Origin: Bacteroidota bacterium
GTDB taxonomy: Bacteria; Bacteroidota; Bacteroidia; Chitinophagales; Saprospiraceae
DNA length: 64,000 nt
Assembly (NCBI GenBank): GCA_039194925.1
Contig: JBCCVV010000006.1
Location: 205 to 64,204, forward strand
Reading direction: 5' to 3'
Below are positions 2-51,944 of the stretch, piece after piece. Below the pieces are notes generated by a model that saw only the letters and a list, made by a program, of their open reading frames with translations, did not search any database and had not been told where the DNA came from. Numbering within the stretch: position 1 is the first letter of the stretch; every line of letters begins with the position of its first letter. Position numbers and translations under genes: made by a program.

Positions 2-460
2 GCACCAGAAGAAGAGCGTCTGGCTATGATGCCTCCATCCTATTGTAGTTCTTCTGGTTCAAATTTTAGTTACGAATATATTTCAAACGTCCAAATTGGT
101 ACACTAAACAACAGTTCTGCCGGCTCAAGTTATACTGACTATACCAGTATTGTAACGGATCTTCAGGCAGGACAGGTTTATACGATTACCATTACTCCGG
201 GTTGGCCCGGAAGTAGTTATAATGAAGGGTATGGTGCCTGGATTGATCTCAATCAAGATGGTGATTTCGATGATCCTGATGAACAAATTGCTTTGATTGA
301 TCCTACAAATTCCTCTACAGTCACCAGCACATTTCTACTCTCCAATATCGCGACGACAGGACAAACGAGGATGCGGGTATCCATGAAATATAATGATGCA
401 CCAACCTCATGTGAAACTTTTAATTATGGGGAGGTTGAAGATTATACGATCAATATTTTG
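2..460 (+). other. GEVED domain (partial at 5' end) of ORF1
   Basis: GYGAWIDLNQDGDFDD ... MRVSMKY ... CETFNYGEVEDYTINI, the signature C-terminal GEVED motif. Confidence 0.7.
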
Positions 461-3400
461 GCGCCTAATTCTGCTCTTTGTAATACGGAATGTACAACAC
501 CTTATTACTTCAATTGGTACGACGGAACAAGTGGTGCTGAATGGGCAATTACCAACGGTGAAACTTCTGTACAGAATGTATATACGGTCTCAGGGGATCA
601 AGGTGATTACAATGTTACCGTTACCATGAGTAACCCTGATGGTCAAAATATCGATTTTTCGAATTGTGCAGTGCCTTTGGAAAGAGCATACACAGCAACC
701 TGTAATGATCCTAATGGTGATGCCAATTGTGATGGGGACAATGGAACCACAGATAGTCAATTTTCGTACGGTTGTGGTTATCTTACCTTTGGTGTAACGT
801 CAAATAATAGTTCAGAATATACATCCATAACCTATGAATTCGAATTTCCTGCTTACATCTGTGGATTGGAAATTGGTGATATTGATTATGCTGGCGCCTC
901 TTATCCGAGTTTGACCAGTTATCAGGATGAAGTAGATGTAGTAGCGGACAGTATGGGAGTTCCGGTTGTTATAAATGCTGCTGTAGGGCCTGCAGTAGAT
1001 GTTTATAACAATAATACTACTGCGGTTAAGTTACTTGCGGAATATACGAACCCATATTCAGGAGATATACTGCCCAATGATCCGGCAGGACATGCATATA
1101 TTACTACGGCTAATCGGGTAACATCAATAACGTTTACGTATTCGAATGGTCCTGATGATGAAGGGCAAAGTGATGACCACGCCATCCGATTGGCAGGATT
1201 TGATTTTTGTCCTACCAGCCAAGTCGAAATCTGTGTCAATGGTATTGACGATAATGCTAATGGTTATATCGATAATTTTGACCCTGGATGTCCGCTTTAT
1301 GCACCCTTTGATTGTGACAAAACTTTATTTCAAACCCGTTCTCCCGACAATGGTTCTACGTACTATCTGGATACGATTACCCGATCTCCTGTGACATTTA
1401 ACCAATTGCATAACCTTACTGCAAATGGGATGACAGCCGCTGGATTTAATGCTACTGCGTATAACCCACAAGATCGATATATTTATGGTTTAAATCCTTT
1501 GAAATCAGATAGTTATCAAATGTATCGAATTAATGCCCTTGGCGCAGTACAGTTCATTGGAAACGTGACTGGTTTGACGGGGACAAATGATGCAGGTGCT
1601 TTTTCTCAAGATGGCAGGTATTATGTCTTTGGAGCAAGCGGTAGATTGTATGAAATCGATATATTTTCCTACGCTGCTAATGAGATAGCAAATCTTGGAT
1701 TTGCCGGAGGAGATATAGTAGTCAATCCAGCAGATGGGCTGATATACACCTGGAATAGTGATGCCAATCAATTGTACTCAATTGATCCCTCCAACGGGAA
1801 TGCCACTGCCATAGGTTCTCCGAACTCACAATACACCGAATTTGGTTCTCTTTTTGCCAATGAGCAAGGAGATATTATTGGATATGGGAATGATGCAAAC
1901 GTCACTGGAACCAGTCAGGAAACATTGGTGAGTATCAATCCTGCTACAGGCATTGTTACTCCGATTGAAGTGGGACCTGAAGTTACGTATAATGATGGAT
2001 GCTCATGCGCATTTGGAGTGGGTATGACGAAAGAAGCATCAGTCAGTGTAGTAGAACCTGGAAATTCACTGACATATACTTTTAATGTATACAACCGAAC
2101 CGATAGTATCTTAACGAATTTGACATTTATTGATAATTTGCCTACGGGATTGACATTTAGTTCAAATCCTTATAATGTTACTGGAATGTCTCTGGGTTCT
2201 GCCAGTATAAGTGGAAGTAGTTCGGCTAATTTTACCATCAATTCTCTGGCCCCTGGGGTTAATTCATTTATGGTGGATGTATCTATTCCTTTGACTTTTT
2301 GTAGTGACATCGAGAATCAGGCCAGAATAGAAGGTTTGCCTTCAAGTTTGGGGTCTGCAATAGTATCAGATGATCCATCCACAGGTGAAATTGCTGATGC
2401 AACAACCACTTTGATCAGCAATTGTGAGGAATATTGGATTGAGGCAGAGTGTGAACAAGTAGGAGCCAATTGGAATGTAGTGGTAGATTCTACTGCATCC
2501 AGATATAGTTATGCTTCTATTATGACCGGATTTAATTCTTTAGGTTCTGCACCTACCGGAGCAGATGATAGAATTAGATTTAATGTAACGATTACCAATG
2601 CAGGAAATTATAACATCTTTGCTCGAGTGTTAGCTCCAAATTCAAGTGATGATTCCTTTTGGGTAAGAGCGAATGGTGGAACATGGTACAGATGGAATGG
2701 TTTGAATGATTTTGCCGCAAGTGATTGGGCTTGGGGTCAAGTCTGGAATTCTGATGCAGGAAATGCAGTGGTAACCTTCCCTCTCGTATCTGGAGCAAAT
2801 ACCATTGATATTGCCTATCGTGAAGATGGAACTCGACTGGATAAGATCAAGGTAGCCTTGAACAATCAAGTACCAACCGGAGAGGGTGGAATATCTACGA
2901 ACTGTCCTGAGATATGTGATAATGGAGAAGATGACGATGGAGATGGTCTGGTAGATTGTGCTGATGACGACTGCGGTGGTGAAGCAGTTTGTCAAGGTCC
3001 ATGTATTCCAGAGAAACTATTCGTAGAAAGATGGTTTGGAATAAGTGGAACTGCAATTACAGATTTGACCTCTCATCCGAATTATCCTAATTCTCCTGAT
3101 GAATTGGATTACATTGATTTGTTTCAGGGGCCCAATGGTTATGCAGATAATTACGGAACACGCGTAAGAGGTTTTGTAATCCCAAATGAATCCGGAACTT
3201 ATACATTTAATGTTACGGGAGATGATAACACAGTATTGTACCTCAGTACAGATGTAAATGAAACCAATAAAACGGAGATAGCCTCTGTAACTGGATGGAG
3301 CGGCGTAACAGAACACAATAAATACGCAGTTCAGACCTCGGTCGACATCGAATTATTGGCAAATGTCTGGTACTATGTCGAACTCCTTGTAAAAGAAGGA

Positions 3401-6400
3401 ACCGGTGGTGATCATTTCCAGGTATATTGGAGAACTCCAAGTCAACCTTCAACATGGAATATTATACCTGGAACGCAATTGGCACCTTTTATTTGTCCTG
3501 AAATATGCGATAACGGTGAGGATGATGATAACAATGGTCTTACAGATTGTTTGGATCCATATTGTGAAAATGGGGTAAATGTCTATATCACCTCAGCAGA
3601 TAATGTCATATGTCTAGGTGAATCTGCAACGCTGGATGCCGAATTTTTAGGTAGTCCCGGTACATTGACCTATGCTTGGTCGAATGGGGCAGGATCTGCT
3701 AGTACCGCCAATGTAAGTCCAAATGTTACAACTACTTATGTGGTGACCGTTACCAATACTAATGGATGTACTGCGACAGATCAAATGGTTGTGACGGTAA
3801 ATGATTTACCAACGGCGGGAGCTTCTAATGATGGCCCGATTACTTGTAGTCAACCGATTGTTAGACTTGCAGCTACTCCAGTTGGTATGAGTTACTTATG
3901 GCCTGGGGGTGAAACGACACAGACTGCAGATATTACGGTTGCCGGAACTTATATAGTTACGGTTACAGACAGTAATGGATGTACAGATACTGCATCAACC
4001 GTTGTAACAGACGATATAGTGCCACCTGTTGCCGATGCTGGGGCAGATGTGGCAATCTGTTTTGGCGAAAGCACTAATTTAACGGCCTCGGGAGGTGGAT
4101 CATATGCCTGGTCCAATGGTGCAGGAAATACCGCCGCAGTTAGCGTGAGTCCAACTTCTTCAACGACATACACTGTAACGGTTACTGCTGCTAATGGATG
4201 TACAGATACAGATATGGTTACCGTAACCGTGACACCGCTTCCGGTTTCGAGTATAAATGCTGTCAATACCATATGTGAAGGGACAACAGTTTCAATCAAT
4301 GCAGCAGATGCCGGTGCAGGAGCGACATATTCATGGGATTTTGGCGCCAATGCCACACCTCAGACGGCATCGGGTATTGGGCCTCATGACGTTGTCTACG
4401 ATAATGACCACGTTACTGGAAATGATGTTCAAAACACAATCACATTAGATGTTGTATTGAATGGATGTACGGATCAATTTACCGATAATATTTCTATAGA
4501 TGCGATTCCTGATGTTACGGTTTCAAGTACCTCACCTTCGTGTGGAGTGGATGATGGAACAATAACATTCACTTTTCCAGATAATACATCACGAACAAAT
4601 ATTGAATTTAGTATAGATGGAGGAGCATCTTATCCACATGATTTTTCGGATAATATTGGTTCGGCAACAGTTTCAAGTTTGGCTTCAGGAACGTATGATT
4701 TATATGTACGATGGGGCAATACGAATTGTCCAATAGACCTACCAGACGTAATGCTCAGTGATAATACTGTTCCTACAGCAAATGCCGGATCAGATGATGA
4801 AATATGCATAGGTGAAAATACTACTCTTACAGCTACAGGAGGTACTTCCTATGTTTGGTCGAATGGAGCTGGTAGTACAGCATCGGTTAATGTAAGCCCC
4901 ACAACTACAACTACATATACAGTTACAGTGACCGCTGCAAATGGTTGTACAGCCGAAGATAATGTTACGGTTACCGTACATGCATTACCGGTGGTTTCCG
5001 CATCCAATGACGGACCCATTACGTGTAGTCAACCAAATGTAATCCTAACAGCCTCACCTGCGGGAATGACTTATGCATGGCAAGGAGGAGGAAGCAATCA
5101 GACTAAAACTGTATCCGCTACCGGTAGCTATTCTGTGACCATAACTGATGCAAATGGTTGTACCAATGTTGCTAGTACAACAGTAGCTATAGATACGATT
5201 TCGCCCACTGCGAATGCTGGAGCAGATAATGAAATATGTATAGGAGAAAACACAACCCTCACCGCTTCGGGAGGAGTATCATATATTTGGTCAGACGGAG
5301 CGGGTAGTACAGCTTCAGTTAATGTAAGCCCAACTACAACAACTACTTATACTGTGACAGTAACCGCTGCAAATGGCTGTACAGCCGAAGATAATGTTAC
5401 AGTTACTGTACACGCATTACCGGTGGTTTCCGCATCCAATGACGGCCCCATCACGTGTAGTCAACCAAATGTAATCCTAACAGCCACACCTGCGGGAATG
5501 ACTTACGCATGGCAAGGAGGAGGAAGCAATCAGACAAAAACGGTAACAACTACCGGTAGCTATTCTGTGACGATTACGGATGCCAATGGTTGTACGAATG
5601 TAGCTACAACAATTGTAACCGATGATTTGACACCTCCAGCGGCAGATGCTGGATCAGATGATGAAATATGTATAGGTGAAAGCACAACCCTCACCGCTTC
5701 GGGAGGCATTGCTTATTCTTGGTCTAATGGAGCTGGGAGTACAGCCTCAGTTAATGTGAGTCCAACGATAACAACTACGTATACCGTGACCGTAACTGCT
5801 GCAAATGGATGTACTGCTGAGGATGATGTTACAGTTACCGTGCACGCATTGCCGGTGGTTTCGGCTTCCAATGATGGCCCTTTGACCTGTGCCCAGACTA
5901 GTGTGATCTTAACGGCTTTACCTGCAGGGATGACCTATTCCTGGGATACTGGCGGAAGTAACCAAACTGAAACGGTAACAAGTACAGGAACCTATTCCGT
6001 GACGATTACAGATGCCAATGGTTGTACGAATGTGGCAACTACAGTGGTAACAGATGATCTTACCACACCAGTAGCGGATGCTGGATCCGATGTTGAGATT
6101 TGTATAGGAGAAAGTACAACGCTTTCTGCTTCAGGAGGTATAGCTTATATTTGGTCAAACGGAGCAGGAAATACAGCTTCTGTAACTGTAAGTCCAACAA
6201 CGACAACAACATATACAGTCATTGTTACAGCTGCAAATGGGTGTCAGGATATTGATGATGTCACCGTAACCGTAAATCCCCTGCCAACAGTAGGTGCTAC
6301 AAATGATGGTCCATTAACGTGTGTACAAAATAATGTTATCCTTAGCGCAACTCCAGCAGGGATGACCTATTCCTGGGATACTGGTGGAAGCAATCAGACT

Positions 6401-9400
6401 GAAACAGTCACCACTACAGGAATTTATTCCGTTACCGTGACTGATGCAAATGGTTGTACGAACGTTGCGAATACAACGGTAGCCATTGATACAATTTCAC
6501 CAACTGCCAATGCTGGATTAGATGATGAAATATGTATCGGAGAAAGTACAACACTTACAGCAACGGGAGGTGTATCATATGAATGGTCGAATGGAGCCGG
6601 AAATACGGCTTCTGTTAATGTAAGCCCAACAACAACAACTGTGTATGTGGTTACGGTTACCGCAGCAAATGGTTGCACGGATGAAGATAATGTTACAGTC
6701 ACCGTACATGCATTGCCAGTAGTTTCCGCTTCAAATGACGGACCCATTACGTGTAGTCAACCAAATGTAATCTTGTCGGCAACGCCCACAGGAATGACTT
6801 ATGCATGGCAAGGTGGTGGAAGCAATCAAACCAAGACTGTAACGGCTACAGGAAGCTATTCTGTCACGATAACTGACAGTAATGGCTGTACAAATGTTGC
6901 TACTACAATTGTAACAGATGATTTAACAAATCCAATTGCGGATGCCGGGTTGGATGACGAAATATGCATAGGAGAAAGTACTACTCTTACAGCTTCTGGA
7001 GGGGTGTCGTATGAATGGTCCAACGGAGCAGGCAACACCACATCTGTTACGGTAAGCCCTACAATAACTACGACATACACCGTAACTGTAACTGCAGCGA
7101 ATGGATGTCAAGACACCGATGATATTATTGTTACGGTGAATCCTTTACCGATCGTAGGTGCTACAAATGATGGCCCATTGACATGTGCTCAAAATAGTGT
7201 CATCTTAACTGCCACGCCAGCAGGGATGATATATTCCTGGGACACAGGTGGAAATAACCAGACAGAAACAGTTACCAGTACAGGAACATATTCGGTTACG
7301 GTAACTGATGCCAATGGCTGTACAAATGTGACTAGCACAACAGTAGCAATTGACACTATCTCACCCACTCCCGATGCTGGAATGGATGATGAAATATGCA
7401 TTGGAGACAATATAAACCTCACGGCCACTGGAGGAATATCCTACGTCTGGTCTGAAGGAGCAGGTACTACAGCTACAGTTAATGTAAGTCCGGTGACTAC
7501 GACTACCTACGTGGTGACGGTGACCGGTGCAAATGGCTGTACCTCTGAAGATAATGTGACGATTACAGTACATCCGTTGCCGATTGTATCAGCCTCAAAT
7601 GATGGACCAATCACATGTAGTCAACCAAATGTAATACTTACTGCATTTCCAGCAGGAATGACTTACGAATGGGAAGGTGGCGGAAGCAATCAAACTAAAA
7701 CCGTATCTGCCACAGGTACCTATTCTGTAACCATTACCGACGCAAATGGCTGTAGAAATGTGGCTAGTACAACAGTAACAGATGATCTTATACCCCCAGT
7801 TGCGAATGCTGGAACAGATACGGAAATATGTATTGGAGAAAGTACAAACCTTACAGCTTCAGGAGGTGTATCTTATGCATGGTCGGATGGAGCGGGTAGT
7901 TCGTCATCTGTAAGTGTAAGTCCAACTACAACGACAACATATACCGTCACGGTGACTGCTGCAAATGGCTGTCAGCATACGGATGATGTAATAGTTACAG
8001 TAAATCCTTTGCCTATCGTAAGCGTTACAAATGATGGTCCATTGACGTGTGCTCAAAACAGTGTCATCTTGACTGCTACACCCGCAGGGATGTTGTATTC
8101 CTGGGACACTGGCGGAAGCAATCAGACCGAAACGGTAACAGCAACAGGTACATATTCAGTAACGATCACTGATGCGAATGGCTGTACAAATGTTGCTAAT
8201 ACAACGGTATCTATTGATACGATTTCTCCTAATGCCAATGCAGGGTTGGATGACGAGATATGTATAGGAGAAAATACAATCCTTACGGCTTCCGGCGGTG
8301 TATCGTATGAATGGTCTGAAGGTGCTGGAAATTCAGCATTGGTGACAGTAAGTCCTACAACGACGACAACCTATACGGTAACAGTGACTGCTTCCAATGG
8401 ATGTACAGATGAAGACTACGTTACAATAACAGTACACCCTTTACCAGTAGTGTCGGCTTCAAATGATGGACCGATTACTTGTAACCAACCAAATGTGATC
8501 CTTACGGCATTCCCGGCAGGAATGACTTACGAATGGGAAGGCGGCGGAAGCAATCAAACTAAAACAGTATCTGCCACAGGTACGTATTCTGTTACGATAA
8601 CGGATGCCAATGGCTGTAGAAATGTGGCTTCCACCACAGTGACGGATAATGTTGATCCACCAATTGCCGAGGCTGGGCCGGATGATTTAATATGCGAAGG
8701 ATTAAGTACTGATTTAACCGCAACTGGAGGCGTATCTTATGAATGGTCTCACAGTGCGGGAAATACAGCGTCAGTAACCGTAAATCCCACCTCAACCACA
8801 ACATATACGGTAACTGTAACTGGTGCGAATGGTTGTACGGCCGAAGATAATGTCACGGTATCCGTTGACCCCAAACCAACTGTCGGAATCTCTGGTTCGG
8901 ATATAATTTGTATTCAAACGACGACTACCTTGTCTCCAAACTCTGGTGGTACATGGCGAAGTAGTGATAATAGTATAGCCATAGTTTCCAGTTCGGGAAT
9001 AGTCTATGGATTGACACCGGGTACAGCTTCTTTTATTTTTACAAGCTCTGCAACGGGTTGTGAATCGGATACTACTGCAGAAGTGATAGTTACACCCAAT
9101 ATTTCAGTTGATATTGATTTTTCTGGTGGAATTTGCCTTGAAGATGACTCAGAGTTGACTGCAAATGTCACAGGTGGAACATTGAATTTCACTTACAATT
9201 GGTCAGGTCCAAATGGATTTACAGCCAATACTCAGGTAATCGATGCAAATGTTTCCGGCAACTATTACGTAACGGTAACCGATGCAGCAGGATGTAGCGA
9301 TAATACATCAGCATATATCTACGCAGCATACGAACCTTTCATTTTTACATTAAGTACGGAAGTTTGTGAAGATGAAGATGTAACCTTATCCGTAAATTCT

Positions 9401-12400
9401 GCTACTGCAGTTGCTTATCAGTGGAGTGCGAATGCAGGTAGTGCGACTACACAGACTGTCTTAGTTTCTCCTGGTTTGCCATCTGAGGACTATTTTGTAA
9501 CTGTTACGAATGATTTGGGATGTACAAGTGAGGCTACCATTCATATTGATGTGAAGCCTAAGACACCGGTGAATGTAACCGGAGATGATGAGATTTGTAT
9601 CGGTGAAACTACCACTCTGAGTCCTACTACAGGCGGTTCGTGGGTGAGTGCAGATAATACGATAGCAGGAGTAACGGATGACGGAACAGTCACGGGTCTT
9701 GCACCAGGGACAGTAACCTTTACCTTCTATGATAGTACTTTGAATTGTGAATCGAATCCAACTTTACCTGTAACGGTACTGCAACGGCCTCCTGCCAGTA
9801 TTTCCGGACCAGATGCCATCTGTGTAAGAGAAAATACAACCTTATCTCCGGCAACTGGCGGAACATGGGAAAGTAGCGATACTACTATAGCTATGGTAAC
9901 GAACGGAGGAATAGTAACTGCTGTTGCTGAGGGTAATGTAAGGTTTGTTTGGACGGATTCTGCAACCGGATGTGTGTCTAATGCAACCACAGATTTGACC
10001 GTATATCCACTAGTGCCTACTTCATTTACAGGACCTACATCAGTATGTGAAGGTTCTCAGACATATTTGAGTCCTACAACGGGCGGTACCTGGACTTCTA
10101 ATGATACTACGATTGCTACTGTATCAGATATTGGAGTTGTGACCACGTTGGCTCCTGGTACAGTGACCTTTACTTTTACAAGTCAATACACTTGCGTCTC
10201 TGATGCTACGACTCCATTGATGGTCATGCCTAAAGATATAATTACAATAAGTGGTGATTCAGAAGTCTGTGAAGATGATGTTATAACACTAATACCAACT
10301 TCACCGGGAGGTTCTTGGGTTAGTGGCAATACTTCAATTGCTACCGTAAACAGCGGTGGACAAGTGACTGGAATTGCACAAGGAAGTGCGACTATTACAT
10401 ATTTACATGATCCGGCAACCTGCGCTATAGATCCGACATTTGTAGTTACAGTACTTGGAAAACCAGATGTTTGGGTAAGTGGTCCAGTTGAAATTTGTAC
10501 AGGAGATGTAACAAGTGTATCAGCGTCCTCACCAAGCGGTATTTGGTCTAGTAGCGATGAGTCAATAGCGCTAGTATCAGTTGATGGAACTGTAGTGGGA
10601 ATGTCTGGAGGAACAGCAACTTTTAGTTATACGGATACTCAAACATGTGTATCTGATGCGTCGGTTCCAGTAATCGTAAATCCACCGGTAGATGTAGATA
10701 TTGATTACATCGGTTCAGTATGCCTTGAAGATGATACAAAACTGGTAGCATCTCCATCTGGGGGCACACCAGGTTTTTCTTATTCCTGGTCTGGTCCAGG
10801 TGGTTTTACTTCCAATCTTGATACAATAGATATAGTGTTAAGTGGATTATACAATGTATTGGTAACGGATGGAGAAGGTTGTTCAAGTAACAAAACGGCT
10901 TATGTGTATGAGGCTTACAATCCATTCATATTTACACTGGATACAGAAATTTGTGAAGGAGAGGACGTTACGCTCTCTGTGAATGGATCCTCGGGCGGAA
11001 CATATCAATGGAGTGCTAATACAGGATCATTAACATCTCAATCTGTAACCGTTACACCATCGGTTCCGGGAGAAACGTATTATGTTACAATCACGAGCCC
11101 TCAAGGATGTACTACCGTTGCAAATACAGTAATCGATGTTGAACAATTGCCTGTGATCAATTTGACCGGTCAGGATTCCATTTGTATGGGACAAACGACG
11201 ACTTTCACACCAGGTATAGGAGGAGTATGGTCTAGCAGTAATTATGATGTTGCATCCATTACCAACTCAGGAGTAGTAACTGCTTTATCTCCGGGAGCTG
11301 TGACATTTACATTTAGAGATACCTCTTCAGGTTGTTATTCAGCGGAGTCAACAAATATTACGGTAAATGCCAATGATAATATATTAATTAATGGTGATGG
11401 TGATCTTTGCCTTGGAATTCCAGAAACACTTACTGCTTCAGTGCTGGGAGGAACATGGAGCAGCTCAAACCCTGGTATTGCTTCTATAGATGCGATGGGT
11501 GCGGTTACTCCAATTGCCGAAGGAAGTACGACCATTCTTTATACACCCGCACCGAACACATGCTACAATGTAGGTACTCATACAATGAGTGTAAATACTA
11601 TTCCAACAGTAGATGTAAACGGTCCTTCTACAATTTGCGAAGGAGAAATTACCTACCTGGTGCCGAGCAATGGTGGGACTTGGGAAAGTAGCGATACAAC
11701 AGTGGCTACGGTCAACGCTATAGGAATCGTAACTGGAGTTTCTGGCGGTAGCGCATCCTTTACGTTTACTTCAACAGCAGGTTGCATTCAGACTTTATCT
11801 GCACCTATAAATGTTGTTCCTACTCCGGTTGTTAGTCTTACGGGTCCATCATCGATATGTATTGATGAGAGTACAACACTTTCGCCAACTTCTGGAGGAA
11901 TATGGTTAAGTAGTAATAATCTGGTAGCTTCGGTGAGCAGTTCAGGAGTAGTGCTTGGAAAATCTGCAGGTACAGCCCAGTTTACCTTCATTGAAATTAT
12001 TAATGGATGTATATCCTCAAATGTAATTGAAGTTACGGTTGACCCAAGACCTAATGTAACAGGGTTGGGAGATAGTAATATATGTATTGGCGAAACGACT
12101 ACTATAAGCCCATCAACGGGAGGTTCGTGGACAAGTAGTGATACTACGGTAGCTACGATTACATCTTCCGGTCTTATTACAGCTGTTGGTGCGGGTGCAG
12201 CTACATTTACGTATACAGATGCTTCAACGGGCTGTTCATCATATGCATCAAGTGCTCTTACTGTTGATGGAAGACCAACTATAAATATTAGTGGAGCAAC
12301 AGAACTATGTGTAGGCGATAATTCATCAATTCTGCCTAATTCAGGAGGAGTCTGGTCAACATCAGATGTTTCTGTAGCAACGATTACAAGTGATGGAACC

Positions 12401-15400
12401 ATCACGGCAGTCTCTGCTGGTACAGTGACATTTACTTATACAAGCGACCTGACGGGCTGTTCTTCATTGGCAAGCGATGTTTTTACCGTGAGTAATCCAA
12501 CAACAGCTAATATTACAGGAACATCGATTCTCTGTATCGGAGCTACTGGAAATTTAGTGGGTTCTGAAAGTGGTACATGGACATCGAGTAATAATGCCAT
12601 TGCAACTGTAAATAGTGCGGGTGTGGTAACCGGACATGCACCAGGAATGGTTACGATTACCTTAAATACAACAGCCTCCTGTATTACCAATCCAACCTAT
12701 GATGTTCAAGTTGAACCAAATCCGAATCCAATTTATACGGGATCAACATCTCTTTGTCTAGGAGAAACGACTTCACTTAGCCCAACTACGGGAGGTATAT
12801 GGACGAGTAGTAATGACGCCATAGCCACAATTGATCACACCGGAAATGTGACAACTCTGACCAGTGGGGTAGTGAATTTCAGTTTTACAGATACATTATC
12901 GGGATGCAGCGGAACGACGTCTTCATCACTGAGCATTTTTGAGTTACCAGAAGTTGAGATTTCGGGTAACAATATCATTTGTGTTGGAGAGACAACAAGT
13001 ATGAGCCCATCTTCTGGGGGATCTTGGTCAAGTAATAATACAGCAGTAGCAACTATCAATTCTAATGGGGTCGTTACGGCTATATCAGCAGGTACAGCAA
13101 CTTTCACATATACTGAAACGGGCACATCGTGTACTTCACTAGCTTCAGAACCCGTGACGGTGTTGGCAAGACCTAATGCCTCGATTACAGGTTCTACAAC
13201 GCTTTGTGTTGGAGAAACATCTACTTTATCACCTACGACGGGTGGTAGTTGGATTAGTTCTGACGAATCGGTGGCCACAGTAACTGATCAAGGGGTGGTT
13301 ACAGCTGTAGCACAAGGTGTTGCAAGATTTACTTTTGTGGCAAATAATGGTTGTGCCTCGAACCAAACATCTCCAATCATTGTATTTGGTATTCCATCTA
13401 TAGGGGTAGATGGAGTAACAGAATTGTGTGTCGGAGAATCGGCTCAAATGCTTCCATCATCTGGTGGTCTTTGGGTATCGAGTAACGAATTGGTGGCTAC
13501 GATTACAAATGACGGGGTAGTAACTACATTATCTCCGGGTACCGTTTCGTTTACCTTCACGGACTCAAGTACAGGTTGTATTTCGGACGCTTCTGAAATT
13601 CTGACAATAAGTGCTATCCCCAATACTGCAATAAATGGTCCGTCCAGTATTTGTATAGGAAGTACAACGAATTTTACACCTACAGCGGGAGGAGTCTGGT
13701 CAAGTGTAGATCCTTCTGTAGCATCTATTCAAAACAATGGAGATGTTACCGGTATTTCTGCAGGAACTGTACGTTTTATTTTTACAAATTTAACAACGGG
13801 ATGTGTTTCAGATACTTCCTCTGCAATTATAGTAACGACAGAATCGACACCTATATATATAGGTTCGGATGTAATATGTATTGGGGATACTACCTATCTT
13901 TCACCTTCATCAGGTGGGACATGGGAGAGTACAAATACTGAAGTAGCCACCATAGATAATTCAGGAATGATCATTGGAGTAGGACAGGGTACGGCAAGAT
14001 TTAGGTTTACCAATAGTACTACCGGATGTGTTTCAGATTTTAGCACCACACTTACAGTGAATGGTGTAGGAACGGTCTTTGTTAATGGTAGCTCATCCAT
14101 TTGTATTGGAACATCGACCACATTATCTCCAAGTAGCGGTGGCTCTTGGGTGAGTTTGAGTCCAGGAGTGGCAGTTGTAAGTTCATCTGGAGTTGTGACC
14201 GGGGTCACCGCAGGGACTGCCAACTTTGTGTTTACAGATTCGATTACGGGCTGTAGCTCAGATGGGTCACTTGGTGTAATAGTGCAGGATTTTACCGAAA
14301 TATCCATAAATAGCACTGGTGGGGAATTGTGTATTGGATATACACTTCAAATGACAACATCTACGTCTGGCGGTGTATGGACCAGTAGCAATAAAGACAT
14401 TGCATCCATTTCGAATTCTGGAATAGTACGAGGAAGAGCTCCTGGAAAAGTAACTTTCACTTACACGGAGTCAATCGCAGGGTGCGTAAATTCTTCTACC
14501 TCGGATACGTTGGTTGTCAACAATTGTATGAATCATGATTTCAATGTTGCTGTTATTGATCAACAAATTTTTGGAAATGTAAGTACAAATGATAATTATC
14601 CAACGACGGCATCGTACAGCAGTACTCCACAATTGGTTTCAAAGCCGGATGCGAGTATTGCGACTTTTACGATAAATGCTGATGGGAGCTATTCCTTCCA
14701 GGGTAATAAAGCCGGCAACTATCGATATAATGTTCCAGTTTGTTTAGATCCGATTTATACAGGATGTCCAACATCAATGATTGAGTTTACCTTAGTTGAG
14801 AATCAATATTCAACTGGTAATCCTGTGACGAATCTTGATATTGCGACAATGTTTGGAGTGGAAGAAGCTGGTAAGTATGCCAAAAACGATAGTGCATTCT
14901 GGATTAGTACAATTCAAAATGACGTATGCATATATACGTTAGGATGTGATATGGATTGGAGTTCCGCTTGGTTGGAATCGAATGCCTCGAATGGGTGGGC
15001 TGAAATTATGCCCGGTGGAATTATTGAATATACTCCCGATGTAGGGTACATTGGTTTCGATACGATCTATTATGGCATATGCGCTGATGGATATTCCAAC
15101 TGCAACAATACCATGCAGATAATGACAATAAATCACAGTAGTGCACAGAATACAGTAGTGGCTGCAGATGATTTCCAATTTACCCTAAGAGAAACTGCAG
15201 TTTCAGGTAATTTACTTACCAATGATAGTGATGCGGAAGGAGATTCAATCCTTGTTACGCCTCAAGGGGCATTCATGGCTCCAATCATAACGAGTGCCGG
15301 ACAATACTACATTGATGCACTCGGTAATTTCAATTTTACTCCTAATGGTTTGTTCAGTGGGCATACCGAGATAATCTATGAAATTTGCGATGATAATCCA

Positions 15401-16339
15401 GATCAGGCATGCATGCAGGCTACCCTGCACTTGTTAGTTTTTGATGATATCGCCATCAAACTAAGAGTCTATCTTGAAGGAGCCTTAATGCAAAATGGCG
15501 GGGCTGTTTCTTCTACGGGAAGACCTCTGATGCGTGATAATTTAAGAGTAAGTCCATTTACAGGATTAAATTATATTCCGTTGTATGACCCATATACGAT
15601 TTCTGCCGATCCATTTGTAGGAACTCCGAGTAGATATAATAAAATCGGTCCGGGCCAATTGGCAGAAAATCAAGAAATTACCGATTCATTGGGTGTCTTT
15701 GGAGTGATTGGAGAAAACGCAATTGTCGATTGGGTGCACGTTGAGTTACGTTCAAAAGACGACTATACGATACCCATTGCTACACGTTCTGGCTTGTTGC
15801 AACGAGACGGTGATATAGTTGATCTGGATGGAGTCTCTGACCTTCGTTTTAATGCCGTAAATGTGGATAGCTTCTATGTTGTGGTCAAACACAGATCTCA
15901 TCTCGGAGTAATGTCCGAAAAGGTTGGATTCGCTGAGACAGTGGATTTTACATCAACTTCATATCCAGTCTTCAATTTTGAAATCAAAGAGTTGAATGAT
16001 TATTCGGGATTATCGCAAAAAAATGACCTCTTACCAGGTTATTCTGCGCTGTGGGCGGGTGATTTTGACTCGAATGGAAAAATCAAATTTACCAACCCTT
16101 CTGATGATCAAAACGTGTTGTTTTTCAACGTATTATTCTCGTCTCCAGACTTTCTTATCAATTATGATCAGGCTTATGGTTATATGACAGGTGATTTTAA
16201 TATGAATAGTAAATCCAAGTTTACCAACCCTAGTGACGATATCAACTTCTTATTTAGTCAAATTCTTTTATATCCTTTGAACAGTTCATTCTTGTCGAAT
16301 TATAACTCACTGATTGAACAAGTACCTGAGGACGAGTAG
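2..16339 (+). CDS. Giant modular cell-surface adhesin-like protein, 5'-truncated by the window edge (frame open from nt 2; >=5445 codons)
   Basis: One uninterrupted ORF. Modules in order: GEVED motif (NYGEVEDYTINI), unknown Cys-rich module, propeller-like region, DUF11-like repeat, CBM-like module, PA14, Ig-like/SprB-like tandem repeats. Then ~21 Big_2-like 75-aa units (ICxGETTxLSP..GGxWxSS...IATV..G.VT....GT..FTFT...GC), cadherin/VCBS-like repeats (NDSDAEGD) and the conserved C-terminal module. Confidence 0.9.
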   Translation, partial: APEEERLAMMPPSYCSSSGSNFSYEYISNVQIGTLNNSSAGSSYTDYTSIVTDLQAGQVYTITITPGWPGSSYNEGYGAWIDLNQDGDFDDPDEQIALIDPTNSSTVTSTFLLSNIATTGQTRMRVSMKYNDAPTSCETFNYGEVEDYTINILAPNSALCNTECTTPYYFNWYDGTSGAEWAITNGETSVQNVYTVSGDQGDYNVTVTMSNPDGQNIDFSNCAVPLERAYTATCNDPNGDANCDGDNGTTDSQFSYGCGYLTFGVTSNNSSEYTSITYEFEFPAYICGLEIGDIDYAGASYPSLTSYQDEVDVVADSMGVPVVINAAVGPAVDVYNNNTTAVKLLAEYTNPYSGDILPNDPAGHAYITTANRVTSITFTYSNGPDDEGQSDDHAIRLAGFDFCPTSQVEICVNGIDDNANGYIDNFDPGCPLYAPFDCDKTLFQTRSPDNGSTYYLDTITRSPVTFNQLHNLTANGMTAAGFNATAYNPQDRYIYGLNPLKSDSYQMYRINALGAVQFIGNVTGLTGTNDAGAFSQDGRYYVFGASGRLYEIDIFSYAANEIANLGFAGGDIVVNPADGLIYTWNSDANQLYSIDPSNGNATAIGSPNSQYTEFGSLFANEQGDIIGYGNDANVTGTSQETLVSINPATGIVTPIEVGPEVTYNDGCSCAFGVGMTKEASVSVVEPGNSLTYTFNVYNRTDSILTNLTFIDNLPTGLTFSSNPYNVTGMSLGSASISGSSSANFTINSLAPGVNSFMVDVSIPLTFCSDIENQARIEGLPSSLGSAIVSDDPSTGEIADATTTLISNCEEYWIEAECEQVGANWNVVVDSTASRYSYASIMTGFNSLGSAPTGADDRIRFNVTITNAGNYNIFARVLAPNSSDDSFWVRANGGTWYRWNGLNDFAASDWAWGQVWNSDAGNAVVTFPLVSGANTIDIAYREDGTRLDKIKVALNNQVPTGEGGISTNCPEICDNGEDDDGDGLVDCADDDCGGEAVCQGPCIPEKLFVERWFGISGTAITDLTSHPNYPNSPDELDYIDLFQGPNGYADNYGTRVRGFVIPNESGTYTFNVTGDDNTVLYLSTDVNETNKTEIASVTGWSGVTEHNKYAVQTSVDIELLANVWYYVELLVKEGTGGDHFQVYWRTPSQPSTWNIIPGTQLAPFICPEICDNGEDDDNNGLTDCLDPYCENGVNVYITSADNVICLGESATLDAEFLGSPGTLTYAWSNGAGSASTANVSPNVTTTYVVTVTNTNGCTATDQMVVTVNDLPTAGASNDGPITCSQPIVRLAATPVGMSYLWPGGETTQTADITVAGTYIVTVTDSNGCTDTASTVVTDDIVPPVADAGADVAICFGESTNLTASGGGSYAWSNGAGNTAAVSVSPTSSTTYTVTVTAANGCTDTDMVTVTVTPLPVSSINAVNTICEGTTVSINAADAGAGATYSWDFGANATPQTASGIGPHDVVYDNDHVTGNDVQNTITLDVVLNGCTDQFTDNISIDAIPDVTVSSTSPSCGVDDGTITFTFPDNTSRTNIEFSIDGGASYPHDFSDNIGSATVSSLASGTYDLYVRWGNTNCPIDLPDVMLSDNTVPTANAGSDDEICIGENTTLTATGGTSYVWSNGAGSTASVNVSPTTTTTYTVTVTAANGCTAEDNVTVTVHALPVVSASNDGPITCSQPNVILTASPAGMTYAWQGGGSNQTKTVSATGSYSVTITDANGCTNVASTTVAIDTISPTANAGADNEICIGENTTLTASGGVSYIWSDGAGSTASVNVSPTTTTTYTVTVTAANGCTAEDNVTVTVHALPVVSASNDGPITCSQPNVILTATPAGMTYAWQGGGSNQTKTVTTTGSYSVTITDANGCTNVATTIVTDDLTPPAADAGSDDEICIGESTTLTASGGIAYSWSNGAGSTASVNVSPTITTTYTVTVTAANGCTAEDDVTVTVHALPVVSASNDGPLTCAQTSVILTALPAGMTYSWDTGGSNQTETVTSTGTYSVTITDANGCTNVATTVVTDDLTTPVADAGSDVEICIGESTTLSASGGIAYIWSNGAGNTASVTVSPTTTTTYTVIVTAANGCQDIDDVTVTVNPLPTVGATNDGPLTCVQNNVILSATPAGMTYSWDTGGSNQTETVTTTGIYSVTVTDANGCTNVANTTVAIDTISPTANAGLDDEICIGESTTLTATGGVSYEWSNGAGNTASVNVSPTTTTVYVVTVTAANGCTDEDNVTVTVHALPVVSASNDGPITCSQPNVILSATPTGMTYAWQGGGSNQTKTVTATGSYSVTITDSNGCTNVATTIVTDDLTNPIADAGLDDEICIGESTTLTASGGVSYEWSNGAGNTTSVTVSPTITTTYTVTVTAANGCQDTDDIIVTVNPLPIVGATNDGPLTCAQNSVILTATPAGMIYSWDTGGNNQTETVTSTGTYSVTVTDANGCTNVTSTTVAIDTISPTPDAGMDDEICIGDNINLTATGGISYVWSEGAGTTATVNVSPVTTTTYVVTVTGANGCTSEDNVTITVHPLPIVSASNDGPITCSQPNVILTAFPAGMTYEWEGGGSNQTKTVSATGTYSVTITDANGCRNVASTTVTDDLIPPVANAGTDTEICIGESTNLTASGGVSYAWSDGAGSSSSVSVSPTTTTTYTVTVTAANGCQHTDDVIVTVNPLPIVSVTNDGPLTCAQNSVILTATPAGMLYSWDTGGSNQTETVTATGTYSVTITDANGCTNVANTTVSIDTISPNANAGLDDEICIGENTILTASGGVSYEWSEGAGNSALVTVSPTTTTTYTVTVTASNGCTDEDYVTITVHPLPVVSASNDGPITCNQPNVILTAFPAGMTYEWEGGGSNQTKTVSATGTYSVTITDANGCRNVASTTVTDNVDPPIAEAGPDDLICEGLSTDLTATGGVSYEWSHSAGNTASVTVNPTSTTTYTVTVTGANGCTAEDNVTVSVDPKPTVGISGSDIICIQTTTTLSPNSGGTWRSSDNSIAIVSSSGIVYGLTPGTASFIFTSSATGCESDTTAEVIVTPNISVDIDFSGGICLEDDSELTANVTGGTLNFTYNWSGPNGFTANTQVIDANVSGNYYVTVTDAAGCSDNTSAYIYAAYEPFIFTLSTEVCEDEDVTLSVNSATAVAYQWSANAGSATTQTVLVSPGLPSEDYFVTVTNDLGCTSEATIHIDVKPKTPVNVTGDDEICIGETTTLSPTTGGSWVSADNTIAGVTDDGTVTGLAPGTVTFTFYDSTLNCESNPTLPVTVLQRPPASISGPDAICVRENTTLSPATGGTWESSDTTIAMVTNGGIVTAVAEGNVRFVWTDSATGCVSNATTDLTVYPLVPTSFTGPTSVCEGSQTYLSPTTGGTWTSNDTTIATVSDIGVVTTLAPGTVTFTFTSQYTCVSDATTPLMVMPKDIITISGDSEVCEDDVITLIPTSPGGSWVSGNTSIATVNSGGQVTGIAQGSATITYLHDPATCAIDPTFVVTVLGKPDVWVSGPVEICTGDVTSVSASSPSGIWSSSDESIALVSVDGTVVGMSGGTATFSYTDTQTCVSDASVPVIVNPPVDVDIDYIGSVCLEDDTKLVASPSGGTPGFSYSWSGPGGFTSNLDTIDIVLSGLYNVLVTDGEGCSSNKTAYVYEAYNPFIFTLDTEICEGEDVTLSVNGSSGGTYQWSANTGSLTSQSVTVTPSVPGETYYVTITSPQGCTTVANTVIDVEQLPVINLTGQDSICMGQTTTFTPGIGGVWSSSNYDVASITNSGVVTALSPGAVTFTFRDTSSGCYSAESTNITVNANDNILINGDGDLCLGIPETLTASVLGGTWSSSNPGIASIDAMGAVTPIAEGSTTILYTPAPNTCYNVGTHTMSVNTIPTVDVNGPSTICEGEITYLVPSNGGTWESSDTTVATVNAIGIVTGVSGGSASFTFTSTAGCIQTLSAPINVVPTPVVSLTGPSSICIDESTTLSPTSGGIWLSSNNLVASVSSSGVVLGKSAGTAQFTFIEIINGCISSNVIEVTVDPRPNVTGLGDSNICIGETTTISPSTGGSWTSSDTTVATITSSGLITAVGAGAATFTYTDASTGCSSYASSALTVDGRPTINISGATELCVGDNSSILPNSGGVWSTSDVSVATITSDGTITAVSAGTVTFTYTSDLTGCSSLASDVFTVSNPTTANITGTSILCIGATGNLVGSESGTWTSSNNAIATVNSAGVVTGHAPGMVTITLNTTASCITNPTYDVQVEPNPNPIYTGSTSLCLGETTSLSPTTGGIWTSSNDAIATIDHTGNVTTLTSGVVNFSFTDTLSGCSGTTSSSLSIFELPEVEISGNNIICVGETTSMSPSSGGSWSSNNTAVATINSNGVVTAISAGTATFTYTETGTSCTSLASEPVTVLARPNASITGSTTLCVGETSTLSPTTGGSWISSDESVATVTDQGVVTAVAQGVARFTFVANNGCASNQTSPIIVFGIPSIGVDGVTELCVGESAQMLPSSGGLWVSSNELVATITNDGVVTTLSPGTVSFTFTDSSTGCISDASEILTISAIPNTAINGPSSICIGSTTNFTPTAGGVWSSVDPSVASIQNNGDVTGISAGTVRFIFTNLTTGCVSDTSSAIIVTTESTPIYIGSDVICIGDTTYLSPSSGGTWESTNTEVATIDNSGMIIGVGQGTARFRFTNSTTGCVSDFSTTLTVNGVGTVFVNGSSSICIGTSTTLSPSSGGSWVSLSPGVAVVSSSGVVTGVTAGTANFVFTDSITGCSSDGSLGVIVQDFTEISINSTGGELCIGYTLQMTTSTSGGVWTSSNKDIASISNSGIVRGRAPGKVTFTYTESIAGCVNSSTSDTLVVNNCMNHDFNVAVIDQQIFGNVSTNDNYPTTASYSSTPQLVSKPDASIATFTINADGSYSFQGNKAGNYRYNVPVCLDPIYTGCPTSMIEFTLVENQYSTGNPVTNLDIATMFGVEEAGKYAKNDSAFWISTIQNDVCIYTLGCDMDWSSAWLESNASNGWAEIMPGGIIEYTPDVGYIGFDTIYYGICADGYSNCNNTMQIMTINHSSAQNTVVAADDFQFTLRETAVSGNLLTNDSDAEGDSILVTPQGAFMAPIITSAGQYYIDALGNFNFTPNGLFSGHTEIIYEICDDNPDQACMQATLHLLVFDDIAIKLRVYLEGALMQNGGAVSSTGRPLMRDNLRVSPFTGLNYIPLYDPYTISADPFVGTPSRYNKIGPGQLAENQEITDSLGVFGVIGENAIVDWVHVELRSKDDYTIPIATRSGLLQRDGDIVDLDGVSDLRFNAVNVDSFYVVVKHRSHLGVMSEKVGFAETVDFTSTSYPVFNFEIKELNDYSGLSQKNDLLPGYSALWAGDFDSNGKIKFTNPSDDQNVLFFNVLFSSPDFLINYDQAYGYMTGDFNMNSKSKFTNPSDDINFLFSQILLYPLNSSFLSNYNSLIEQVPEDE
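479..1215 (+). other. Uncharacterised ~245-aa Cys-rich module (copy in ORF1; paralogous copy in ORF3 at 26644-27390)
   Basis: Colinear match between ORF1 and ORF3: C.T/ECxTPYxFxWxDG, NPDGQNIDF(S/T)NC, CNDPNG(D/N)xNCDGD, SQF(S/T)YGC, IGDID(Y/H), FTYSNGPDD(E/D)GxSxDHAIRxxGF(D/E)FCP. I recognise no named family. Confidence 0.6.
2423..2860 (+). other. CBM-like / galactose-binding-like module of ORF1
   Basis: EYWIEAECEQVGANWN...DDRIRFNVTITNAGNYNIFARV...DDSFWVRANGGTWYRW...GANTIDIAYREDGTRLDKIKV. This pattern is typical of bacterial carbohydrate-binding modules; the family is not assignable by eye. Confidence 0.55.
3001..3490 (+). other. PA14 domain of ORF1
   Basis: ERWFGISGTAITDL...YGTRVRGFVIPNESGTYTFNVTGDDNTVLYLS...YYVELLVKEGTGGDHFQVYWRTP. 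Confidence 0.7.
4778..8665 (+). repeat. Nine exact 432-nt (144-codon) in-frame tandem units, each one Ig-like 'A' plus one Ig-like 'B' domain
   Basis: The equivalent Ala codon of the xA(N/D)AG..(E/D)ICIGE motif recurs at 4778, 5210, 5642, 6074, 6506, 6938, 7370, 7802, 8234 and 8666, i.e. spacing is exactly 432 nt each time. More divergent copies flank the array at ~3590-4245 and 8666-8880. Confidence 0.95.
10681..16339 (+). repeat. Paralogous 3' block, copy 1 (SprB-like cassette + 15 Big_2-like units + cadherin-like repeats + CTD)
   Basis: Colinear at protein level with 20007-25649 and 31200-36851. The distance from the (V/I)D(Y/F) landmark codon to the stop is 5631, 5619 and 5622 nt in the three genes. 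Confidence 0.85.
15443..16336 (+). other. Conserved ~300-aa C-terminal module with paired dockerin-like loops (ORF1 copy)
   Basis: DDIAIKLRVYLEGAL...AIVDWVHVELRSKDD...RSGLLQRDGDIVDLDGVSDLRF...FYVVVKHRSHLGVMS...WAGDFDSNGKIKFTNPSDDQNVLF...TGDFNMNSKSKFTNPSDDINFLFSQILLYPLNSSFLSNYNSLIEQVPEDE. Confidence 0.8.
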
Positions 16340-50714: not shown

Positions 50715-51944
50715 TTATTTTTCTAAAATGAACTTTTCTGTTTTTGTTTCTCGAGTATCCAAGTCGACCAATTTTAGAAAATACATTCCATTTGAAAGAT
50801 TACTTAGATCAAGCGTTGGATTTTGTGTAGGTATTGTCACAATTCGACCATACATGTCAAAAATGGAATACTCTAATTTTAAGTTGAAAGGATTGGATAT
50901 TGTCACCAGACCAGCGCTAGGATTTGGGTAAGAATGAACAGATTCCAGACGTTCAGAAAAATCCGCCACACTTGAAGTTAAATCTCCACAGAGGATATTT
51001 GCGAGGAAGTCTGCTGTGAAATCTACACTACTTACAACATTATCCGCTCCAAATAGAAAACTTACATGTCCTTGACTATTCTCTATAGTTCGCAACTGGT
51101 TCAGGACTGAGACACTATCACCCACTTCCTGGCATCGTTGGCTTCCCTCCATGAAAATGATTGGAATATTAAAAACTGTTGCAAAACCACCACCATACGG
51201 TACTACGGGATCCATATCATCATGAATACTTACAAAAGGCGGGTCATTGGCATCAATCCATGAAGCGTTATTCAAGCCACCTGAGAAATTGACTAACCCT
51301 TGTACTTCTGACGAATATTCCAAATTCGAGCTTGAGTTGCCTTCAATTCCTCCATTGTCGTCCAAAATAGTCATAATATCTTCTGGCAAATCGTCCGTTT
51401 CGTCAAGCACTGCCGTATGAAATGCCGTAATGCTGCCTGCGGAGACACCACCAACAAAGATATTATCCGGATCAATTCTAAATTGATTGTTTGTGTCCGC
51501 ATCTTGCCGCATAAATCGAATCGCAGCCTTCATATCCGAAACCGATTTGATTACGACGACCTTAAAATCGTCATCCGAAGGAATTGGAACCAAAGGACCG
51601 TCATACAATCGATAATCAATCGCGACTGCAACGTATCCTTTTTTTGCATACGCCTCACATAAAAATCCTACGTCAGATCTTTCTCCACCTATGAAACTTC
51701 CACCAAATGCCAGAATAATAACCGGTCTTTTTTCAAGATTATCGCCTATGGGCTCATATACATTAAGAAACAATTCCTGAAAATTCCCTGCGAACGTCTC
51801 ACCTTCACCAAACTTAATGTCATTGAAAACTCCAACAGTACTGAAGACATCATCTCTAAAACGAATGCCATCGCAACCTTCAATTTGTGAATAGGAAATA
51901 TCATAAACAAAAAGAAAGCATAAAAGAAGTAGATATTTTTTCAT
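50715..51944 (-). CDS. Secreted alpha/beta-hydrolase (carboxylesterase-like) with T9SS type A C-terminal domain
   Basis: Signal peptide; nucleophile elbow GGVSAGS; C-terminus VHSYPNPSAGLVTISNP...YSIFDMYGRIV...LSNGMYFLKLVD...KFILEK. Confidence 0.8.
   Translation of the reverse strand: MKKYLLLLCFLFVYDISYSQIEGCDGIRFRDDVFSTVGVFNDIKFGEGETFAGNFQELFLNVYEPIGDNLEKRPVIILAFGGSFIGGERSDVGFLCEAYAKKGYVAVAIDYRLYDGPLVPIPSDDDFKVVVIKSVSDMKAAIRFMRQDADTNNQFRIDPDNIFVGGVSAGSITAFHTAVLDETDDLPEDIMTILDDNGGIEGNSSSNLEYSSEVQGLVNFSGGLNNASWIDANDPPFVSIHDDMDPVVPYGGGFATVFNIPIIFMEGSQRCQEVGDSVSVLNQLRTIENSQGHVSFLFGADNVVSSVDFTADFLANILCGDLTSSVADFSERLESVHSYPNPSAGLVTISNPFNLKLEYSIFDMYGRIVTIPTQNPTLDLSNLSNGMYFLKLVDLDTRETKTEKFILEK

Follow-up and report, generated by a model that had tools for sequence, protein, structure and literature searches.

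The closest described counterpart of the system studied here is grappling hook protein A (GhpA) of Aureispira sp. CCB-QB1, a protein of 5,898 amino acids (aa) that is a substrate of the type IX secretion system (T9SS) and whose stem is built from 52 immunoglobulin (Ig)-like repeats, forming a straight, heptameric and glycosylated structure of 240 nm (10.1101/2024.01.29.577165). Several structures of GhpA are available for comparison (PDB 9flp, 9fls, 9flu-9fly and 9g8b). A second point of reference is given by the Periscope Proteins, whose definition demands highly identical repeats and whose variation is greatest where repeat identity is highest (PMC8201768). In this study, we analyzed a stretch of 64,000 nucleotides (nt) from a Saprospiraceae genome (assembly GCA_039194925.1, contig JBCCVV010000006.1, forward-strand positions 205 to 64,204), hereafter referred to as the window, in which a giant surface-protein gene (ORF1) harbors a tandem array of nine 432-nt units at positions 4778-8665. 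Our data suggest that this array encodes 18 Ig-like β-sandwich domains within the extended stalk of a secreted giant protein, a surface fiber or adhesin, a reading to which we assign a probability of roughly 0.8.

To describe the array, we employed Tandem Repeats Finder, which reported a single array in the first 14 kb of the window, spanning 4781-8647 with a period of 432 nt, 9.0 copies, 72% matches, 0% indels and a score of 2692. Self-identity amounts to 0.72 (0.721) at a lag of 432 nt, compared to 0.20-0.29 at lags of 216 and 429-435 nt, and the periodicity is thus far above chance. Cutting the DNA at 4778+432n yields nine units of 144 aa each, all in frame with the long open reading frame (ORF) at 2..16339. 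The intact frame and the absence of indels confirm what the original prediction had stated, namely nine in-frame units without any change in length. Each unit consists of two domains of ~72 aa, termed a and b, each of which contains two cysteines. Between units, whole-unit identity ranges from 65 to 84% at the nucleotide level and from 66 to 89% at the amino acid level. In register, no two units match exactly over more than 39 nt, and the array holds no repeated k-mer of at least 41 nt. A search for array-like DNA on the other contigs of the same assembly found none. The array extends slightly past 4778-8665, as a tenth, a-type half unit follows at 8666-8881 and a diverged unit together with an a-domain is found upstream at 3590-4246.

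From unit 4 onward, two types of unit alternate. Units 4, 6 and 8 (type II) differ from units 5, 7 and 9 (type I) by 21 fixed nucleotide and 8 fixed amino acid differences, while the nine other three-versus-three splits of units 4-9 give 0-3. This substantiates the proposed two-unit super-repeat of 864 nt. All but one of the fixed differences reside at unit positions 172-419, which places them late in domain a or within domain b. The effect of the alternation on bulk identity is small, with 0.744 at a lag of 864 nt versus 0.721 at 432 nt. Using the sites fixed between the two groups, we painted units 1-3 as type I or type II. Unit 1 belongs to type I except for its tail, which is of type II, and unit 2 is almost purely of type I. 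Unit 3 starts as type I, switches to type II at unit nt 241-328 and then returns to type I. The view that units 1-3 are all hybrids therefore holds for units 1 and 3, which are mosaic, and not for unit 2. The array and its immediate surroundings comprise the following features:

4778-8665, plus strand: the array, nine 432-nt units equal to 18 Ig-like domains, with a and b alternating (Tandem Repeats Finder, unit cutting, lag identity)
4778-5209, plus strand: unit 1, of type I apart from its type II tail, AIDTISPT (fixed-site painting)
5210-5641, plus strand: unit 2, type I (fixed-site painting, synonymous-tract test)
5642-6073, plus strand: unit 3, mosaic of types I, II and I, with the type II segment at ~5882-5969 (fixed-site painting, recombination tests)
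6074-6505, plus strand: unit 4, type II (fixed differences)
6506-6937, plus strand: unit 5, type I (fixed differences)
6938-7369, plus strand: unit 6, type II (fixed differences)
7370-7801, plus strand: unit 7, type I (fixed differences, synonymous-tract test)
7802-8233, plus strand: unit 8, type II (fixed differences)
8234-8665, plus strand: unit 9, type I (fixed differences, synonymous-tract test)
8666-8881, plus strand: terminal a-type half unit that ends the array; every orthologue has its positional counterpart as a terminal a-domain (profile search, trees)
3590-4246, plus strand: older diverged a+b unit of 147 aa (3590-4030), then a single domain of the a type (4031-4246), with positional orthologues present in every relative (hmmsearch using profiles of the unit and of a and b; trees)

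An antisense ORF of 107 aa also lies within the array (window 6424-6747, minus strand); it is probably an incidental by-product of the Thr/Val/Gly-rich coding strand.

With the unit types at hand, we investigated the exchange of sequence between units. A PHI-like incompatibility statistic lies 6.8 standard deviations below the permutation mean and was reached in none of 2000 permutations. In a Sawyer-type longest-run test, only the pair of units 3 and 4 survives Bonferroni correction (P=0.0006 before correction for 36 pairs). Moreover, we searched for tracts of low synonymous divergence, counting synonymous differences only in codons that specify the same amino acid. Units 1 and 2 share such a tract at codons 52-120 (4931-5137 in unit 1, 5363-5569 in unit 2), with 9 differences in 66 codons compared to 29 in 61 codons elsewhere. 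A second tract connects units 7 and 9 at codons 95-119 (7652-7726 and 8516-8590), with 3 differences in 25 codons. For each tract, the observed value was reached in 0 of 300 permutations. Thus, the mosaic ancestry of the units is real and involves units 7 and 9 as well, and the PHI-like test and the low-synonymous tracts support gene conversion. Together with the site painting, these results are in line with the recombination or gene conversion that had been suspected behind the mosaics. The heterogeneity of DNA identity that had been noted is likewise borne out by the 65-84% range between units and by the significance of the two tracts. A hand count of 115 matches in 120 positions (4981-5100 against 5413-5532) proved exact on recount, as did a synonymous pair quoted from units 7 and 9 (ACCATTACCGACGCAAAT versus ACGATAACGGATGCCAAT, each coding for TITDAN). 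However, units 7 and 9 are not simply old copies, as had been proposed from this pair, since they share the low-synonymous tract described above. The term 'recently homogenised' was also too strong: the closest pair of units is 84% identical with a synonymous divergence (dS) of 0.63, the best tract reaches 96% over 120 nt, and the longest exact run is the 39 nt given above. It holds only in a relative sense. A literature search for a higher-order repeat combined with gene conversion in Ig-like adhesins turned up no paper.

The units are old and under purifying selection. By the Nei-Gojobori method, dS between units is 0.63-3.15 and nonsynonymous divergence (dN) is 0.07-0.27, with a ratio of means of 0.10. 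At amino-acid-invariant positions, pairwise codon identity is 0.52, compared to 0.41 in random draws from the codon usage of the gene, indicating that synonymous sites are close to saturation. A single-copy segment just downstream of the array shows a dN of 0.13-0.20 and a dS of about 1.5-2.9 (1.65-2.85 for this genome) against three orthologues. As the units differ from each other within the same range as this single-copy flank differs between species, their age is approximately that of speciation within the genus. Purifying selection with strict conservation of length, as originally proposed, is thus evident from the dN/dS of ~0.10, the saturated dS and the lack of any indel. A function of the periodicity at the DNA or RNA level was considered and rejected, as dN/dS is ~0.1 and synonymous sites are near-random.

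The domains of the array belong to the Pfam family Ig_7 (PF19081, Ig-like domain CHU_C associated), which scores 149.1 bits (cut-off 27.3, E=4.4e-44) and covers eight stretches within 4778-8665. Matches to PKD are also present in the array and are weaker than those to Ig_7; an NCBIfam scan of the array gave no match. The profiles of the a and b domains match each other's domains at ~25 bits. Domain identity is ~40% between adjacent domains (a to b), ~70-75% between next-but-one and ~82% between next-but-three domains (within units 4-9). An identity of less than 50% between adjacent tandem domains has been linked to the avoidance of misfolding (PMC8201768). Because a and b domains alternate, neighbors within the array are only ~40% identical and stay below this level of ~50%. 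A model of units 4 and 5 obtained by AlphaFold2 from a 29-row alignment (mean predicted local distance difference test score, pLDDT, of 96.2; predicted template modeling score, pTM, of 0.70) is extended, all-β and consists of four serial β-sandwich domains connected by Pro-containing linkers of 4-6 residues. A Foldseek search of this model against the PDB returned fragments of the GhpA stem, neck and base as the top eight matches (E-values of 1e-17 to 1.6e-15, TMq 0.47-0.63, 22-27% identity), while RTX-adhesin and animal Ig arrays rank far below. Furthermore, a profile of the unit alignment identified GhpA among the PDB sequences with an E-value of 3.8e-279 over 18 stretches. With four serial β-sandwich domains in the model and the GhpA stem as best match, the predicted structure backs the proposed role as a stalk or spacer.

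Next to the fold, the orthologues of ORF1 speak to the history of the array. A close orthologue is present in five of nine species-level genomes of the genus, and the named relatives are Saprospiraceae metagenome-assembled genomes. Profile searches gave the following numbers of full units:

This genome: 9 full units of 144 aa each
P0025, a metagenome protein of 5,220 aa: 5 full units, all at 144-aa spacing
G006 (= P0051 = L021): 3 full units of 143 aa (429 nt) with 81% matches
G001 (= L020), a complete genome: 1 full unit
L018, a metagenome contig: 1 full unit

Copy number has thus changed over evolutionary time, as had been expected, with 1, 1, 3 and 5 units in the orthologues compared to nine here. 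L018, L020 and L021 were found with a four-sequence flank alignment among metagenome and genome contigs, while a single flank protein found none. A family-wide search with flank alignment A1 was uninformative, as the module is also present in paralogues and one congener was sampled. In two congeners, a contig starts inside the orthologous array (G005:C28:1-12000, L015; G003:C103:1-12000, L016), and G005 carries a further piece of array in the end region of another contig (C146:12675-13568); the units of these genomes may be too alike to assemble. All full-unit counts are odd (9, 5, 3, 1 and 1). Odd counts would be expected if unit number changes in two-unit steps; as there are five cases and they are not independent, we take this as no more than a hint.

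In domain trees, the upstream unit and the closing a-domain, which flank the array, each pair with their positional orthologues from the other species, while the interior units group by lineage. Judged from these trees, the clustering fits either independent growth or concerted evolution within each lineage. The array of P0025 alternates as well: in protein-level trees, its a-domains separate into {1946, 2090, 2378} and {2234, 2522}. Its b-domains likewise form two groups, {1874, 2162, 2450} and all others. Moreover, its b-to-a linkers alternate between TDDLxPP and AIDTLSP, the same two motifs as the TDDLxPP and AIDT[IL]SP of the present array. This shared alternation suggests that the linker pattern probably predates the split of the two lineages, and the domain bodies would since have drifted or been homogenized within each of them. 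In G006, all three units have TDDL tails. Among other giant Ig_7 proteins (938 matches), the spacing of domain pairs varies from ~135 to 152 aa in most. The exact spacing of 144 aa is therefore a property of this young-to-middle-aged family and not of the domain type.

Taken together, our observations suggest the following scenario for the stalk. The array would have started by tandem duplication of an a-b pair, which is single in some congeners, through unequal crossover. Lineage-specific growth to nine units would have followed, at least partly as 864-nt blocks of one diverged type I and one type II unit, and growth in such blocks would produce the alternation of unit types. Purifying selection on the β-sandwich fold has since forbidden indels, so that each domain stayed 72 residues long even as synonymous change approached saturation. 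The mosaic units 1 and 3 near the 5' end, like the short tracts of low divergence, would go back to rare events of unequal crossover or gene conversion. The number of units would set the length of the stalk and, by this, the distance of an N-terminal lectin-like head (GEVED, DUF6923, DUF11 and PA14) from the cell. An Ig-like domain spans ~4 nm, a value that agrees with the grappling hook, where 52 repeats account for most of the 240 nm. At ~4 nm per domain, the nine units (18 domains) would add ~70 nm to the stalk.

The array represents a clean natural example of length gain in giant bacterial fiber proteins, with a two-domain module going from one to nine copies within one genus. The array has remained free of indels despite near-saturated synonymous change, and its adjacent domains stay dissimilar (~40%). 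It also ties an unstudied Saprospiraceae family to the stem of GhpA, the only solved structure of this domain type, which thereby becomes a template for modeling. The natural length variants with 1, 3, 5 and 9 units might be of use in asking whether stalk length tunes adhesion or prey capture.

Several points weigh against this scenario. The clustering of interior units by lineage could also reflect concerted evolution of an ancestral longer array and not independent growth. Block-wise duplication of 864 nt is not proven: the b-domain tree reads ((4,6),8) for one unit type and (5,(7,9)) for the other, whereas simple block duplication predicts congruence, and trees of domains as short as 72 aa have low resolution and leave many forks open. 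Simple 864-nt block duplication as the entire history is not supported by these incongruent trees. The PHI-like signal is possibly inflated if the sites that define the subtypes are clustered by selection. The count of nine comes from one short-read-type assembly of 449 contigs. Finally, the presumed rigidity and adhesive function are based on the model and on GhpA, and the latter has a different head, C-terminus and gene neighborhood.

Among the alternatives, a functional role of the two-unit, four-domain period was considered in some detail. Here, the 288-aa period would have been selected as a structural register and would be more than a remnant of duplicated blocks: alternating linkers, one of them with a putative O-glycosylation sequon (AIDT[IL]SP in every second b-to-a linker), would set the register for lateral packing into a multi-stranded, GhpA-like stem. 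The O-glycosylation sequon of Bacteroidota is D-(S/T)-(A/I/L/V/M/T). The pattern D[ST][AILVMT] occurs only four times in the array, each time as DTI at unit position 139 and always in a type II tail (units 1, 4, 6 and 8; window 5192-5200, 6488-6496, 7352-7360 and 8216-8224), and P0025 has DTL at the same alternating positions. The placement of all four matches in type II tails favors such a register, as does the recurrence of the AIDT[IL]SP/TDDLxPP alternation in P0025, given that the domain bodies themselves group by lineage. It would also agree with the strong fold match to the GhpA stem, a heptamer held by inter-domain contacts and carrying glycans on Ser/Thr (10.1101/2024.01.29.577165). 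However, all three units of G006 are TDDL-tailed and G001 and L018 carry a single unit, so that the protein family does not need the alternation. Moreover, the linker alternation may be mere inheritance from a duplicated two-unit block, and the sequon rule is background knowledge. We therefore regard a selected four-domain register as unlikely. If true, the period could determine how glycans are spaced, or how the strands of a GhpA-like stem are laterally aligned, with a C-terminal module unrelated to T9SS as the anchor.

We also considered that the array might be an actively length-variable one of the Periscope type, in which high unit identity drives frequent intragenic recombination, unit number varies among strains or within populations, and the assembly might misreport it. 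The differing unit numbers of the orthologues and the conversion tracts of the present array point in this direction, as do the three units of G006 with 81% nucleotide matches and the contigs of G005 and G003 that begin within the array, as expected of units too alike to assemble. However, the units studied here are only 65-84% identical, with a dS of 0.6-3.1, an exact run of at most 39 nt in register and no repeated k-mer of at least 41 nt, whereas the definition of this class asks for highly identical repeats (PMC8201768). Furthermore, the copy-number differences lie between species whose single-copy flanks are synonymously saturated. Such a Periscope-type array is thus rather improbable, and judged by the lack of repeated k-mers, present-day instability of the array looks unlikely. 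That the array is an assembly artefact, either as a mis-joined or over-expanded consensus of fewer units or as mixed strains in a metagenome bin, is very improbable: the draft genome is fragmented (449 contigs, N50 of 23 kb) and contigs of relatives break in the same array, yet every unit is distinct by at least 16% divergence, the frame is intact over 3.9 kb within a 16-kb ORF, the alternation and linker motifs recur in the independent orthologue P0025, and the lack of repeated k-mers and of leftover array-like contigs makes collapse or expansion by the assembler unlikely, in contrast to the likely site of short-read assembly error assumed in the original prediction.

For the giant gene that carries the array, the window and the surrounding contig provide the following features:

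2-16339, plus strand: giant surface-protein gene ORF1, 5' open in the window (ORF list, Pfam)
15443-16336, plus strand: C-terminal module of ~300 aa, common to ORF1, ORF2 and ORF3 (alignment)

In the contig, the full ORF1 encodes 5,496 aa, starts with MKVILSK and has a hydrophobic, signal-peptide-like N-terminus. Its Pfam families are GEVED, DUF6923, DUF11, PA14, Ig_7/PKD, Big_2 and Big_9/cadherin-like. The N-terminal head is formed by GEVED, DUF6923, DUF11, acidic double-disulfide linkers and PA14, and is followed by the older a-b unit with its a-domain (3590-4246), PKD-like spacer domains, the nine-unit array and the closing a-domain. A long run of Big_2 domains, a cadherin-like Big_9 domain and the ~300-aa C-terminal module complete the protein. 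The C-terminal module is found in three giant genes (15443-16336, 24750-25646 and 35950-36848); it ends in LIEQVPE, contains paired GDFDxNG/FTNPxDD loops and includes no T9SS sorting domain. No T9SS sorting domain (Por_Secre_tail or CHU_C) was matched in the C-terminal 1,145 or 400 aa of ORF1, and such domains are present on smaller genes of the window at 50715-51944 and 58220-59503. Downstream of ORF1 lie the paralogous giant genes ORF2 and ORF3, followed by a murQ/symporter pair. The genome contains ten PorP/SprF-family genes, none of which is on the contig with the three giant genes.

Two further observations concern modules beside the array. A module of ~230 aa, composed of Big_2 and then Ig_7-like domains with the motifs GGICLEDD and EPFIFTL..E.CEDE, occurs twice in ORF1 (8873-9565 and 10460-11143, 1,587 nt apart) and recurs in ORF2 and ORF3 (19812-20471, 29133-29636 and 30981-31670). 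It is a second, older higher-order repeat common to the paralogues. The spacer at 4247-4777 is unlike that of the orthologues: here it consists of PKD-like domains and a domain of ~100 aa (VTVSSTSPSCGVDDGTITF...), while G001, G006, L018 and P0025 have a Cys-rich Ig-like insert of ~105 aa (TTIFCE.YR...) and a leading b-domain. A swap of modules seems to have taken place beside the array.

How does ORF1 compare with the known systems? Like GhpA, it is a giant protein of the Saprospiraceae (5,496 versus 5,898 aa). Both combine a Sec signal, which is predicted for ORF1, with a head resembling that of adhesins and with a long stalk. The stalks of both consist of disulfide-containing Ig-like domains, and the four-domain model superposes on the stem fragments with a TMq of up to 0.63. 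The many homologous Ig-like repeats of the GhpA stem have their counterpart in the ORF1 array, as judged from profile and fold matches. In contrast, the first 1,592 aa of ORF1 have no match at E<=0.01 in a phmmer search against the PDB sequences, full-length GhpA included, and an unnamed module of ~300 aa takes the place of the T9SS sorting domain. Homologues of PorP/PorE (ghpB/C) are not found downstream of ORF1, where paralogous giant genes reside instead. Repeat identity between the two proteins is only 22-27%. The ORF1 stalk would work in the manner of a fibrillar adhesin stalk and resembles the GhpA stem in fold, while ORF1 departs from GhpA in its head, sorting domain and PorP/PorE neighbors.

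With the Periscope Proteins (SasG/Aap G5-E, Rib and SHIRT/Sgo_0707; PMC8201768), ORF1 shares tandem folded domains with termini at opposite ends, short Pro-containing linkers, a repeat number that differs among relatives and, as predicted for ORF1, a stalk on which a binding region at the N-terminus is held out. Neighboring domains are dissimilar because two types take turns, which is also the arrangement of the G5-E array of SasG. However, the ORF1 repeats are old and diverged (65-84% at the nucleotide level, dS 0.6-3.1) instead of near-identical. Moreover, their variation in number is seen between species (1, 1, 3, 5 and 9), with one strain of the present species, and the organism is an environmental member of the Bacteroidota and not a host-associated pathogen.

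SprB and other Ig_7/CHU_C giants of the Bacteroidota comprise hundreds of proteins of 3,000-8,000 aa with runs of PF19081 domain pairs, which display the same C..G..L.A.GG..Y.W...NGC pattern at identities of 30-50% (938 matches). Most of them vary in pair spacing (135-152 aa) and end in Por_Secre_tail or CHU_C, whereas ORF1 has a spacing of exactly 144 aa nine times, a clean alternation of two subtypes and a different C-terminus. Neither the SprB repeat (PF13573) nor the type B (CHU_C) sorting domain is among the Pfam matches of ORF1. Titin-type super-repeats offer a further parallel in their nested Ig-like periods, here of 72 aa (domain), 144 aa (pair) and 288 aa (pair of pairs), with the higher-order unit as the most conserved period. 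ORF1 differs from them in being a bacterial, predicted extracellular protein and in having only three clean super-repeats. Taken together, our comparison identifies the array as an ordinary feature of giant adhesins that stands out by an unusually clear two-unit alternation, and not as a new kind of system.

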